5,026 bases of DNA from Promethearchaeota archaeon. GTDB lineage: Archaea > Asgardarchaeota > Thorarchaeia > Thorarchaeales > Thorarchaeaceae. Made by a program: the position numbers and the translations under genes. A model generated the notes under the pieces. That model was not told the DNA's origin and did no database searches. It saw nothing but the letters and a program-made list of their open reading frames with translations. Shown one piece after another: positions 1-5,026 of this stretch; the stretch's first letter is position 1; the number at the start of each line of letters is the position of its first letter. Location of the stretch: contig JALVPN010000090.1 in assembly GCA_027031765.1 (NCBI GenBank), forward strand, positions 1 through 5,026, given 5' to 3'.

Positions 1-150
1 CTCTTCCTACTGAACGATATCCGTGTCCGGATATTCTTCCCGGAGTACTTCCTCCAGACACTCGTGGAAGGCCTGGACGCCAGCGACCCCGCTGCGATGG
101 AAATGGCCCACCAACACCTCCGTCTGCTCAGAGACAACTTCCCGCGCTGA
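1..150 (+). CDS. C-terminal end of an unidentified protein (5' truncated by window edge)
   Basis: Frame 1 is open from base 1 to TGA at 148-150: LFLLNDIRVRIFFPEYFLQTLVEGLDASDPAAMEMAHQHLRLLRDNFPR*. G/C is at the third position in 38 of 49 codons (hand count) and the composition is protein-like. No family recognised. Confidence 0.55.
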   Translation, partial: LFLLNDIRVRIFFPEYFLQTLVEGLDASDPAAMEMAHQHLRLLRDNFPR

Positions 151-1644: not shown

Positions 1645-1778
1645 GAGAGCGCATGTTGTTCCGGGTGACGGGGCCGTCCGTGTCGTCCGGTATTTCGTGT
1701 ATCGAGTCCCGGAAGTGTGTATCCGCATCGGGGGCCGGGGCTGCCCGTGCCGCCTGGCGTTTCTTGGAGCGACAGTCG

Positions 1779-3524
1779 ATGATTCACAACACATTCCTCC
1801 TCAGACTACCCGGCGGGGAGGTGCTGGCCTCCTCCCGGTACTGGCCAATAGAGGTGCCAGAAGAGAGCATCCGCGAGTTCCTGGCCACGCGTAGTGAGAT
1901 ACAGAGTGCTTCCAGTGATAGCATTGCAGAGCTGCCACTGATGATTGGTGACATGCGGATGCAGGCACAGCCGTGTGGCAAGGACGACGAGCTCCTGCTC
2001 GTCTTTACAACCGACCCTGGGGAGGACGAACGGCTCGTCAGTGAGAAGCTGAGGGAAGGGGCAAAGGCCATCAGTGCAGCAGTCGAGGAACACGGCCTGG
2101 AGTATGCAGTTGAGAACTACGAGTCCCTGATTGAGCCTGCTGTGACGACCCGCCTCAAGATAGCACTGGTCGGTGAGGGCGGCACTGGCAAGACGACTAC
2201 ACTCCACCTGCTGCTGGGCGACACTCCGCCGCTACAGTACGTGCCGACCATCGCCCTGAACCTTGAAACCGTAGAGAACATCCGTTTTGGGAGCTACTCG
2301 CTCGTGATATGGGACTTCGCAGGACAGGAGCGTTTCCGCCGTCTATGGAAGTTCTATTTTCACGGTGCGGACGTGATATTTCTCGTGTGTGACTCGACGC
2401 TGCGCAACGTCATTGTGAGCAAGGACATCCTGAAACTGATAAAGCGCGACGCCCCCAAGGTGCCGGTCTTCGCCATTGCCAACAAGCAGGACAAGCCCGG
2501 TGCAATGAAGCCTGACGTCATCCAGAAAATCCTCGGGGTGCCCACGTATCCGATGGTGGCCATTGATAAGAGCCGCCGTGAGGAGATGCTACGTATCCTG
2601 ATGAATGCTGCTGCACAGTACGTCGGTGTTGCACTGCCAGACCTCCCTGTTTCGGAGATCCTCCGCTTTGTGGACACGGATGCCGGACATCTTGGAGCGC
2701 CGTCAGTGTCGGTGCCGGTGTCATCCCAGGCCCCGACAGGGACCGGCGGGGCCCAGACCACAGGTACGACGGTGACGGCTGCGGTGGCTGAGGACACCAA
2801 AGAATCCGCCGAGGCGGTCGCAGGAGCGCCAGGAGATGAGGGGTTGGTGGAGGTCGTGGAGGAGGTGCTTGTCGATGAGGATGGCCGCGTAGTTGAAGGG
2901 GACGAGGAGTACGAGGTCATCGAGGAGATTGTGGAGGTAATAGAAGAGAGTGTTGAGACGGTCGACGGTGCTGGCCCCAAGACCACGGCGGGGGCTGGGC
3001 CGGTCTCTCAGGGGGCTGGAGGGCTCTCTATTGAGCCCGCCCCACAGACGCCGGGGGCCCCCGAGTCTGGTGTGACGGCAGAGTCGGATCAGGCGTCTAC
3101 AGTACCCGCCGGCCCAACGGCGCTGGTGCGCGAGATTGTTGTGGATGTCCCTGATGCAGACGAGATGGTCGAGGCAGAGCCTGAACAGGTACTCAACAAT
3201 GACATAGACGCCGCCCTAGAGGTCCTGCACCACGACGAGGTCGCAGCGGACGGTGACGACTCTTCTACGGAGGCCGACGAGCATGCTGTGGAGGAAATCC
3301 TTGACAGCCTTGATACGCCACACCGTCCTACAGGCCCGGCCAGAGATGAGGAGTCCCAATCGAGGTTCGACCTGCTCTTGGACGATATTGACGAGATGCT
3401 GAGCCGGATACATGATGCCCAGTGGGGGCCCGACGCAGAGGGTGGGGGTGCCGGTGCGGGTGACGAGGAGACTGACGATGCCGGGTCGGAGGGGCACGAG
3501 GAATCGCCGGACTCGGAAGACTGA
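1779..3524 (+). CDS. Longin-domain / Arf-like small GTPase fusion with long acidic low-complexity C-terminal tail (~581 aa; ORF is open from ATG 1653)
   Basis: G1 GEGGTGKT (2172-2195), G2 YVPTI (Thr 2247-2249), G3 WDFAGQ (2310-2327), G4 ANKQD (NKQD 2481-2492), G5-like MVAI (2553-2564). The N-terminal ~124 aa (MIHNTFLLRLPGGEVLASSRYW...ELLLVFTTDPGEDERLVSEKLREGAKAI) have the longin beta-beta-alpha-beta-beta-beta-alpha-alpha pattern. ATG 1779 is preferred because the longin-like sequence begins there and GGAG lies at 1766-1769. The tail from ~2630 is D/E-rich. Confidence 0.9.
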   Translation: MIHNTFLLRLPGGEVLASSRYWPIEVPEESIREFLATRSEIQSASSDSIAELPLMIGDMRMQAQPCGKDDELLLVFTTDPGEDERLVSEKLREGAKAISAAVEEHGLEYAVENYESLIEPAVTTRLKIALVGEGGTGKTTTLHLLLGDTPPLQYVPTIALNLETVENIRFGSYSLVIWDFAGQERFRRLWKFYFHGADVIFLVCDSTLRNVIVSKDILKLIKRDAPKVPVFAIANKQDKPGAMKPDVIQKILGVPTYPMVAIDKSRREEMLRILMNAAAQYVGVALPDLPVSEILRFVDTDAGHLGAPSVSVPVSSQAPTGTGGAQTTGTTVTAAVAEDTKESAEAVAGAPGDEGLVEVVEEVLVDEDGRVVEGDEEYEVIEEIVEVIEESVETVDGAGPKTTAGAGPVSQGAGGLSIEPAPQTPGAPESGVTAESDQASTVPAGPTALVREIVVDVPDADEMVEAEPEQVLNNDIDAALEVLHHDEVAADGDDSSTEADEHAVEEILDSLDTPHRPTGPARDEESQSRFDLLLDDIDEMLSRIHDAQWGPDAEGGGAGAGDEETDDAGSEGHEESPDSED

Positions 3525-3550: not shown

Positions 3551-3904
3551 GTGAGTCACTTGAAAATCAGGGATCTTGAGCCGGGGAAGCCGGTGTCTGA
3601 GCTTGTGGTGCGTGTGGTCTCCAAGGCCGCACCAAGGATAATCACTACACGTACGGGTCGGAAGACACAGCTCACCGAAGTGCTTGTGGCCGACGAGACC
3701 GGGACAGCAGTCCTGACCGTATGGGGTTTTGGTGAGAGTTCAGGCCTGAGTGTTGGTGCAGTAATCCGGTTGGTGGACGGTTGGGCCAAGGAGTGGCAGG
3801 GCCGGATACAGATTACCCTCGGCCGGTCAGGACGCTATGAGGTCGTACCGGACGATGGCACCATCCCGTCCATTGCTGACCTCGGGTCAAGGTCTGAGCA
3901 GTGA
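3551..3904 (+). CDS. ssb: Single-OB-fold single-stranded DNA-binding protein (Sulfolobus SSB / hSSB1 type)
   Basis: LKIRDLEPG...VRVVSK...TTRTGRK...VLVADETG...LTVWG...VIRLVDGWAKEWQGRIQITLGRSG follows the crenarchaeal SSB and hSSB1 (NABP) pattern, including ADETG and three aromatic ssDNA-stacking positions. GTG start, 26 nt after the GTPase stop. Confidence 0.88.
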   Translation: MSHLKIRDLEPGKPVSELVVRVVSKAAPRIITTRTGRKTQLTEVLVADETGTAVLTVWGFGESSGLSVGAVIRLVDGWAKEWQGRIQITLGRSGRYEVVPDDGTIPSIADLGSRSEQ

Positions 3905-3940
3905 TGAGAAGACTGATAGTCCTCCACGGTCGTGCCCACA

Positions 3941-4444
3941 ATGACACTCGTCTATCTCTCTGGCCCCATCATCCATGGTGCTCTCCGTCGCGACGACTTC
4001 TATCACACGGTCATCAGGACACTACAGGGTGCTGGCGTAGAGGTCTTCGCGCCGCAGTTCATTGGTGCCGACAGCCCCCGGGCTGTCTTTGAGCGCGACA
4101 CCAGCCACGTAAGGGCATGCGATGTGGTCGTGGCCGAGGTGTCGGGCCCATCGCACGGTGTGGGGATGGAAATAATGCTGTCGGTGGAGCTCCGGAAGCC
4201 CGTACTCCTCTTCAGGCACACAGACGCGCAGCCCCTGTCGTTCATGGTACGTGGTGCTCCTAGCACTGCACTGTTCGAATACGCGTCGCTCACCGATGTC
4301 GAGTCTGTGCTCGGGGTGCTCCCGGTCGACCGGCTCGTCGTGCACCAGTGTGGGAGGTGTACGTGTGGTGTTGCAGTGCCAGAGGGGGACGGTCTCAGGT
4401 GTATAGAGTGCGGTGGGGTGATGGGACGGGCACATGTCCGTTGA
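3941..4444 (+). CDS. Nucleoside 2-deoxyribosyltransferase-family protein, DNPH1/Rcl-like deoxynucleoside 5'-monophosphate N-hydrolase, with C-terminal Cys4 zinc ribbon (alternative GTG start 3932)
   Basis: VYLSGP, FERD, CDVVVAEVSGPSHGVGME and LSFMVRGA match the DNPH1 motifs (LYFCG, HEQD, ADVVVAEVTQPSLGVGYE, LSAMIRGA) with the Tyr, Asp, Glu and Ser active-site positions kept. Extra CGRC-x13-CIEC at 4349-4411. Confidence 0.85.
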   Translation: MTLVYLSGPIIHGALRRDDFYHTVIRTLQGAGVEVFAPQFIGADSPRAVFERDTSHVRACDVVVAEVSGPSHGVGMEIMLSVELRKPVLLFRHTDAQPLSFMVRGAPSTALFEYASLTDVESVLGVLPVDRLVVHQCGRCTCGVAVPEGDGLRCIECGGVMGRAHVR

Positions 4445-5026
4445 GACCGGTGTACCCACAGTCCGTCGGAGGGATGTCTCACTCCTCCTCTCGCTAGCAA
4501 TACTAATGGTGTCCAGTGCCAGCATCCTCATCCGGCTCAGTATATCGCACCCCCTTGCAATTGTCTTCTGGAGGACGTTCTATGGCGCGGTCATCATGGC
4601 TGGTGTGGGGCGTGTCCGTGGTGACTGGCACTGGTACCGGAGTGAGGAGCTCCGTCAGCGCTGGCACTGGCTTGTCCTGATTGGTGCCGTCCTCTCCCTG
4701 CACTTCACCACGTGGTTCACAAGCCTGTTCATGACAACGGTTGCGGCCAGCGTCGTACTCGTTGACATGTCGCCCATATTCACTGCAATTGTCTCGGTCG
4801 GTGTCCTGGGCCACAGTCTGAGCCGTCGGACTTCGGCCGGCATCCTCATTGCAACCATGGGTGCTGTGATGCTGGCCTTGGTGGACCTCGGCACTCCTGG
4901 TAACGATGCCTTTCTCGGAGACCTCCTGGCCCTCCTCAGCTCGGTCTTCCTTGCCCTCTACTTCATCGGCGGACAGGAGCACGCACGTGGTATCCCAAAC
5001 TCTGTCTACACTTCGCTGGTGTACCT
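4434..5026 (+). CDS. EamA/DMT-superfamily transporter (3' truncated by window edge; missing from supplied ORF track)
   Basis: ATG 4434 overlaps the previous gene by 11 nt and the frame is open to the window end: MSVETGVPTVRRRDVSLLLSLAILMVSSASILIRLSISHPLAIVFWRTFYG...LHFTTWFTSLFMTTVAASVVLVDMSPIFTAIVS...GDLLALLSSVFLALYFIGG. Multiple hydrophobic helices, typical EamA motifs, and the start of a second EamA repeat. Confidence 0.9.
   Translation, partial: MSVETGVPTVRRRDVSLLLSLAILMVSSASILIRLSISHPLAIVFWRTFYGAVIMAGVGRVRGDWHWYRSEELRQRWHWLVLIGAVLSLHFTTWFTSLFMTTVAASVVLVDMSPIFTAIVSVGVLGHSLSRRTSAGILIATMGAVMLALVDLGTPGNDAFLGDLLALLSSVFLALYFIGGQEHARGIPNSVYTSLVY

Follow-up and report, generated by a model that had tools for sequence, protein, structure and literature searches.

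A predicted longin–Arf-like GTPase fusion with an acidic tail in Thorarchaeota

Published Asgard fusions and the gene in the window

Several fusions of longin domains with small GTPases have been described in Asgard archaea. In the account of Klinger et al. (2016) given in PMC4917890, Lokiarchaeum has 41 longin-like domains, of which five form fusions with Arf-like small GTPases. Liu et al. (preprint, 10.1101/2020.10.19.343400) reported multiple Rag-family GTPases with a fused longin. In MK-D1, Tran et al. (2024, PMC10933270) found GTPases fused to a longin, to a roadblock domain, or placed between both (among them the L-G and L-G-R architectures), and concluded that the fusions point to functional interactions. 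Here, we analyzed a stretch of 5,026 nucleotides (nt), hereafter the window, which corresponds to positions 1–5,026 of contig C90 (JALVPN010000090.1) of a thorarchaeal genome of 2.95 Mb with an estimated completeness of 95%. A predicted gene on its plus strand (1779–3524) very probably encodes a longin–GTPase fusion of the class specific to Asgard archaea, consisting of a longin, an Arf-like GTPase with intact motifs, and a lineage-specific acidic tail of ~285 amino acids (aa).

The open reading frame (ORF) list contained 1653–3524 (plus strand) as the sole long ORF across the studied region. Translation from the ATG at 1779 gives a protein of 581 aa with the N-terminus MIHNTFLLRLPGGEVLASSRYW, and the stretch MIHNTFLL...GEVLASSRYW is present from this position. 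The start was assigned to 1779 because more than 40 aligned full-length homologues begin with MIH, VIH, or LIH at the matching position. These homologue starts ruled out the upstream ATG at 1653 as the start, and the 42 codons upstream are non-protein. The databases held more than 160 homologues, and their source names were mostly Thorarchaeota, with some Lokiarchaeota, Hodarchaeota, and Hermodarchaeota. The initial annotation had described a longin-patterned N-terminus joined to an intact GTPase, and the ORF, the topology predicted by AlphaFold2 (AF2), and the intact G motifs agree with it; the end that it gave (2625) was too early, as the gene continues to 3524 with a 284-aa acidic tail. The features of the gene are as follows.

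1779–3524, plus strand: whole gene, longin, Arf-like GTPase, and acidic tail, 581 aa (ORF and translation; stop codon 3522–3524)
1779–2144, plus strand: predicted N-terminal longin domain, aa 1–122 (AF2 model, family profile against the PDB, distant members)
2148–2633, plus strand: Arf-like small GTPase domain, aa 124–285 (Pfam Arf)
2172–2195, plus strand: G1 (P-loop) GEGGTGKT, aa 132–139 (G132, G135, G137, K138, and T139 invariant in 43 sequences)
2244–2261, plus strand: switch I PTIALN with conserved Thr157, aa 156–161 (P156, T157, A159, and L160 invariant in 43 sequences)
2313–2327, plus strand: G3 (switch II) DFAGQ with Gln183, aa 179–183, followed by an Arf-like RRLWKFYF (family alignment, Arf2 alignment)
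2481–2492, plus strand: G4 NKQD, aa 235–238 (N235, K236, Q237, and D238 invariant in 43 sequences)
2637–2669, plus strand: post-GTPase motif PDLPxxE(I/L)LRF, aa 287–297 (family consensus PDLPxxELLRF)
2670–3521, plus strand: acidic tail, probably disordered, aa 298–581 (composition count)
2847–2948, plus strand: tail island 1, EEVLVDEDG..EYEVIEE type, aa 357–390 (conserved columns in 12 long-tailed orthologues)
3123–3242, plus strand: tail island 2, ..LDADD-II.AE.D....D.ALEAL..DE type, aa 449–488 (conserved columns in 12 orthologues)
3291–3314, plus strand: tail island 3, E.ILG.LD type, aa 505–512 (conserved in 12 orthologues)
3366–3410, plus strand: tail island 4, short and helix-like, near the C-terminus, aa 530–544 (weakly conserved A(I/L).E.L pattern in orthologues)

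The window protein has the L-G architecture: one ORF of an Asgard genome encodes an N-terminal longin and a C-terminal Arf-like G domain. As in the published Asgard fusions, an N-terminal longin is followed by an Arf-like or Rag-like G domain in one polypeptide within the same phylum, and distant family members elsewhere in Asgard archaea keep the ~300-aa layout. Unlike in those fusions, the longin of the Thorarchaeota subfamily represented in the window has diverged beyond the reach of all Pfam longin models, the protein carries the 284-aa acidic tail with four islands, and the gene order includes OB-fold, nucleoside 2-deoxyribosyltransferase-like, and EamA genes. The diverged subfamily, the tail islands, and the synteny are modest additions, which are not described in the accounts of Klinger et al. 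(as represented by PMC4917890), Liu et al., and Tran et al. The fusion had been put forward as a Rosetta stone that joins in one polypeptide a pairing split between subunits in eukaryotes. The fusion is real and the inference is sound in its general form; it is not new, since the longin/Arf-like fusion has been published for Asgard archaea since 2016 and the architecture was in print in 2016, 2020/2021, and 2024.

Predicted longin fold, junction, and family distribution

The AF2 model was built on a 43-row alignment covering the longin and the GTPase without the tail. The mean predicted local distance difference test (pLDDT) value was 80.7, with ~90 over aa 1–122, and the predicted template modeling score of the whole model was 0.68; a prediction of aa 1–300 from the single sequence (pLDDT 39.9) was unusable. 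The N-terminal domain of the model consists of strands at residues 2–9 and 14–20, a helix at 28–44, strands at 54–56/59–66 and 72–78, and helices at 84–105 and 107–122. This order (strand-strand-helix-strand-strand-strand-helix-helix) is that of a longin, which, unlike a roadblock domain, lacks a helix at the N-terminus and has two at the C-terminus (PMC10933270), as does the model. The domain itself gave little in direct comparisons. Pfam found no recurrent family in 39 Thorarchaeota N-domains, and the best score of an ESM Atlas feature search with aa 1–123 (0.75, to an unnamed bacterial cluster) was at noise level. The N-domain profile retrieved distant family members at E-values of 1e-7 to 1e-13, and some of these exceed Pfam cut-offs, namely, that of Fuz_longin_1 (27.8 and 27.2 bits against 26.1) and that of Clat_adaptor_s (23.8 bits against 22.5). 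Because family members match recognized longin profiles, the N-domain of the window protein is suggested by transitive homology to be a genuine longin.

In the model, longin helix 3 leads directly to GTPase strand 1 (residue 124), with practically no linker between them. The longin probably packs on the G domain because almost no linker separates the two. Here, we propose that the G domain would function as a GTP/GDP switch and that the longin packed on it may serve as a built-in dimerization platform or as a dock for a regulator. Such a part is played for Rag, MglA, Rab, and SR-beta GTPases by separate longin and roadblock proteins, on which the proposal is modeled. The conserved islands of the acidic tail would be likely sites of partner binding or autoregulation.

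Several points weigh against the assignment of the longin and the role proposed for it. Searches of aa 1–123 or 1–125 with Pfam and NCBIfam found no family at E-values up to 1 or 10, and a six-frame search of the whole source genome with PF01217 found nothing at E-values up to 10. With the two-domain model, Foldseek against the PDB, VIA-align wide, and ESM Atlas returned GTPases or members of the own family only; aa 1–120 were barely probed by these fold searches because GTPase matches filled every list. The identity of the longin is based on predicted topology and on homology through distant family members. When the longin and the G domain were folded as separate chains, the contact score was 0.48 and that of the best control was 0.01, with at least 95% contact agreement between the runs and a partner pLDDT of at least 87. 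In the calibration of this score, 58 of 80 solved complexes passed the mark, compared with 2 of 110 mismatched pairs, and passing scores of 0.60 or less were obtained for 7 of the 80 solved complexes and for both passing mismatched pairs. The score thus lies in the weak range and lends weak support to the predicted intramolecular contact. We put forward dimerization, regulation by the longin, and binding of partners through the tail as hypotheses.

The longin–GTPase fusion is conserved across Asgard lineages, and 400 genomes were surveyed for its N-domain; a survey of the architecture had been suggested in the initial annotation. A six-frame search with the N-domain profile detected the domain in 245 of the 400, including 83 of the 85 genomes of the family to which the window belongs, with 2–4 copies in each. 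Nine distant copies were taken from five further Asgard families; eight of these were ~300-aa proteins composed of a longin and an Arf-like G domain, and the ninth was a longin alone. A stand-alone member of the longin family (182 aa; L041, 1501–2046, genome G117) has a charged helical C-terminal extension that replaces the GTPase, which shows that the domain occurs without the fusion too. The source genome has two paralogues, the long form in the window and a short form of 303 aa on contig C57, and their N-domains are 36% identical. Other Thorarchaeota genomes have a third type of paralogue (P0134, ~650 aa), which was not found in the source genome. Its order is longin, Arf-like GTPase, disordered linker, second longin/roadblock-like region, and a further C-terminal domain, corresponding to the longin-GTPase-roadblock design reported for MK-D1. 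A 658-aa protein on contig C61 of the source genome (L044, 241–2217) was rejected as a third paralogue owing to its differing architecture. It has a short N-terminal domain, ~400 aa rich in Ala, Thr, Pro, and Ser that are probably disordered, and a C-terminal Ras-like GTPase, and thus represents a further unusual GTPase architecture encoded there.

The tail of the window protein (aa 298–581, 284 aa) contains 75 Asp/Glu, 8 Lys/Arg, and 125 Gly/Ala/Pro/Thr/Ser residues. The four islands were conserved in an alignment with 11 long-tailed orthologues (12 sequences in total). The PDLPxxELLRF motif directly following the G domain is common to the short and long paralogues.

Affinities of the longin and the G domain

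Two profiles were used to ask which longins the domain resembles. A Thorarchaeota-only N-domain profile was searched against 177,635 PDB sequences, and a broadened profile (A3) combined the Thorarchaeota N-domains with the distant copies from other Asgard families. With the former, the N-terminus of AP-3 mu-1 ranked first among the PDB sequences at an E-value of 0.14. With A3, the top two of the 177,635 sequences were AP-3 sigma-1 (E-value 0.0012) and AP-3 mu-1 (0.0013), followed by AP-2 mu (0.035), another AP sigma (0.058), and AP-1 mu (0.14); the VAMP7 longin (0.23–0.38) and MglB (0.58) came next. AP sigma or mu chains accounted for 10 of the 11 best PDB sequences of this search, and the alignments start from residue 1 and extend over ~105 residues. 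The family and the AP longins (Clat_adaptor_s; AP-3 sigma-1 and mu-1, PDB ID: 9c5c), its best and collinear PDB profile matches, have in common a first strand with the pattern M-I-(H/K/R) and an aromatic residue that ends strand 2. AP longins are separate subunits, embedded in a heterotetramer with large trunk subunits and not fused to a GTPase, unlike the longin of the window protein. The N-terminus of AP-3 mu, to which the window protein had been likened in the initial annotation, was given accurately there, as the profile alignment shows MIHSLFLINC..SGDIFLEKHW. Since the broadened profile ranks AP-3 sigma-1 and mu-1 at the top, the resemblance to AP longins is beyond chance at the family level only.

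Other longins are also matched. When Pfam was run on each of 31 members, Clat_adaptor_s was the most-matched family and was touched by nine of them (best 1.3e-5), with Fuz_longin_1 in seven (6e-7), Longin in three (4e-6), Intu_longin_1 in three, and Sybindin in two. The best scores of Fuz_longin_1 and Longin among the members at least equal that of Clat_adaptor_s. From 1.84 billion representatives, the profile of Thorarchaeota N-domains retrieved 43 proteins; those examined belonged to the own family or were repetitive, without taxon names, and this search provided no usable bridge to eukaryotic longins. Overall, the longin of the family leans weakly to adaptin sigma/mu, a lean that appears real and is not exclusive. 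Of the adaptin/SRX affinity suggested initially, the adaptin part survives in this reduced form: AP-3 sigma/mu are the top matches of the family profile at E-values of ~0.001, and Fuz/Mon1, SNARE, and Intu/Ccz1 longins and Sybindin are matched too.

A further-reaching explanation takes the N-domain as the prokaryotic counterpart of the sigma, mu, zeta, and delta longins of AP and COPI, so that the fusion would record an ancestral partnership of Arf and adaptor, with the longin as a built-in effector. The predominance of AP chains among the best PDB sequences, the count for Clat_adaptor_s, and the Arf proteins that are the best matches of the G domain speak for it. However, the E-values are marginal (~1e-3 at best, and 0.14 with the Thorarchaeota-only profile), the window protein has no PF01217 match, and sister members match the Fuz/Mon1 and SNARE longins equally or better. 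The examined proteins among the 43 from the large search give this explanation no eukaryotic link. The conserved neighborhood contains no adaptin trunk-like gene, the rest of the genome not having been searched for one. The protein also lacks an amphipathic helix and a lipid anchor, and the Asgard-only ArfL group has been set apart from ArfR, the clade to which eukaryotic Arf belongs (10.1101/2024.02.28.582541). We consider this explanation unlikely.

The SRX part of the suggested affinity found no counterpart. According to the corresponding explanation, the longin is of the SRX type and recognizes an SR-beta-like GTPase in its GTP-bound state, and the protein is a single-chain forerunner of the signal recognition particle (SRP) receptor. 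Neither profile detected an SRX chain among the PDB sequences at E-values up to 10, a result at the sequence level, with kinship at the fold level possible. The G domain scores 18.5 bits with SRPRB (PF09439), under the cut-off of 25 bits and far under the 74.8 bits with Arf. A structural match to SR-beta was obtained, and it ranks under many Rab, Ras, and Arf chains. The protein has no N-terminal membrane anchor, and a longin rather than a transmembrane helix precedes the G domain. No SRP or translocon genes were found nearby with Pfam and NCBIfam, and no SRP RNA was found in the window with Rfam. This explanation is very improbable.

The G domain (aa 124–285) matches Pfam Arf (PF00025) with an E-value of 7.8e-21 and 74.8 bits (cut-off 22.3), and its Roc and Ras scores are lower. 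Arf and Arl proteins account for all of its top 60 PDB matches, except for two Asgard GTP-binding-protein entries (8oun and 8oum); Arf2 is the best (9.7e-18), and the Asgard entries follow at ~1e-15. In addition to the motifs listed above, ten columns of G3/switch II are invariant in the 43 sequences (D179, F180, G182, Q183, E184, R185, F186, L189, W190, and Y193). Because the G motifs are invariant in the 43 family members, the GTPase looks catalytically competent, as judged from its motifs. The signature is mixed. Switch I PTIALN aligns with PTIGFN of Arf, and PTIxxN, the R.LW..YF segment of switch II, and NKQD are like those of eukaryotic Arf and Asgard ArfR (8oum and 8oun), whereas the AGQERF of G3 (DFAGQERF) is Rab-like and the G5 region is diverged.

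The N-terminal amphipathic helix, which is often myristoylated at Gly2 and is coupled to the interswitch toggle, is a defining feature of the Arf family (10.1101/2024.02.28.582541). It is absent from the window protein, the chain of which opens with MIHN, corresponding to longin strand 1, and has longin helix 3 before the G domain. The protein also lacks the Arf-type myristoylation residue Gly2, and its C-terminus (...ESPDSED) contains no lipidation motif. Because of the absence of the helix, the glycine, and the lipidation motif, the protein is unlikely, on the evidence of its sequence, to be a membrane-inserting coat recruiter in the manner of eukaryotic Arf, and the Arf-coat module proposed initially has no basis in this respect. 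Vargova et al. described an Asgard-only ArfL group apart from the ArfR clade, which includes eukaryotic Arf and SR-beta (10.1101/2024.02.28.582541). The G domain of the window protein probably belongs to ArfL rather than to ArfR/Arf.

As in Rag/Gtr and MglA-MglB, a small GTPase is functionally tied here to a domain of the longin/roadblock superfamily. The accessory domain of Rag is in the same chain and dimerizes. The protein could be a Rag-like dimeric signaling GTPase with a permuted domain order, in which the longin is a dimerization platform like the roadblock of Rag, and homodimers or heterodimers of the paralogues signal the metabolic state. The literature files the Asgard fusions under Rag-like GTPases, Thorarchaeota genomes have 2–4 paralogues each, and several distant members exceed the Gtr1_RagA cut-off (e.g., L033, with 28.8 bits against 22). 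By contrast, the window protein scores only 14.6 bits with Gtr1_RagA (PF04670; cut-off 22), compared with its Arf score. The domain order is also reversed: Rag has the G domain first and the roadblock second, MglB is a separate roadblock protein, and the window protein begins with its accessory domain, which has longin topology rather than roadblock topology. A Rag-like function of this kind is possible but doubtful, and membership in the Asgard longin–GTPase fusion class describes the protein better.

Gene neighborhood and biological implications

Three genes follow the longin–GTPase gene in the window.

3551–3904, plus strand: 117-aa OB-fold protein resembling single-stranded DNA-binding protein (SSB) (Pfam Ssb-like_OB 4e-5; follows the orthologue in 6 of 6 genomes)
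3932–4444, plus strand: 170-aa nucleoside 2-deoxyribosyltransferase-like protein (Pfam Nuc_deoxyrib_tr 1.7e-11; order kept in 6 of 6)
4434–5024, plus strand: EamA-family transporter, running off the window end (Pfam EamA 1.1e-13; order kept in 6 of 6)

The OB-fold protein also matches the NCBIfam single-stranded DNA-binding protein model at 1.4e-18, under the curated cut-off of that model. The deoxyribosyltransferase-like protein has a four-cysteine CxxC...CxxC motif at the C-terminus. The order of upstream gene, longin–GTPase, OB-fold, deoxyribosyltransferase-like, and EamA genes is kept in all six related genomes, which represent five genera; the genes of this conserved order are all on one strand, with gaps of less than 30 nt or overlaps. 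Because the order is kept in the six genomes, the longin–GTPase gene and the three downstream genes probably form an operon.

Upstream of the gene, window positions 1–150 are the 3' end of the conserved upstream gene. Over the following ~1.6 kb (190–1778), ORFs on both strands do not exceed 154 aa, and neither an Rfam family nor a tRNA was found; this sequence occurs once in the genome and lacks conservation in 30 relatives. Some relatives carry a divergent GNAT-like gene of ~310–345 aa (e.g., L045, 1945–2976, minus strand) in the corresponding gap, which measures only 0.5–0.7 kb in others. A search for a remnant of the GNAT-like gene in the upstream 1.6 kb gave only noncollinear matches with E-values above 2. 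Pfam Ras, searched against all six frames of the genome with read-through of stop codons, gave 28 GTPase matches, none of them in C90:1–1778 at E-values up to 0.01. A 36-nt segment (1109–1144) is 89% identical (E-value 6.3e-5) to a site in a genome of another genus (L043; G317:C2:135612-135648), which is located ~180 nt upstream of the homologous longin–GTPase gene; this match could be a shared regulatory element or due to chance. At 1619–1650, an AT-rich stretch (T7AATAA) lies amid DNA of 60% GC, ~130–150 nt upstream of the start codon, and is a candidate archaeal TATA-type promoter element. If it is the promoter, the 5' leader of the transcript would measure roughly 100 nt, or transcription would be divergent.

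The most far-reaching proposal combines these observations. The longin of the family would be the nearest prokaryotic sequence relative of the longins in the small and medium subunits of AP and COPI, and its obligate fusion to an Arf-like GTPase throughout Asgard lineages would preserve the ancestral pairing that gave rise to Arf-dependent coat recruitment. In the Thorarchaeota long form, the tail islands and the operon with the SSB-like OB-fold and deoxyribosyltransferase-like genes would then link the switch to the metabolism of nucleic acids or nucleotides rather than to membranes. We advance this proposal as a long shot.

Longin–GTPase fusions are among the few direct hints as to how the small GTPases of Asgard archaea are wired to their regulators, and they bear on the origin of the trafficking and nutrient-signaling switches of eukaryotes. 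The copy in the window brings no new architecture; it marks a well-conserved subfamily of Thorarchaeota that lends itself to biochemical work: each genome has 2–4 paralogues, the catalytic motifs are intact, the junction looks rigid, four tail motifs are conserved, and the neighborhood is fixed. That AP-3 sigma and mu rank first is a weak but consistent result and, if true, would narrow the source of the adaptor longins.

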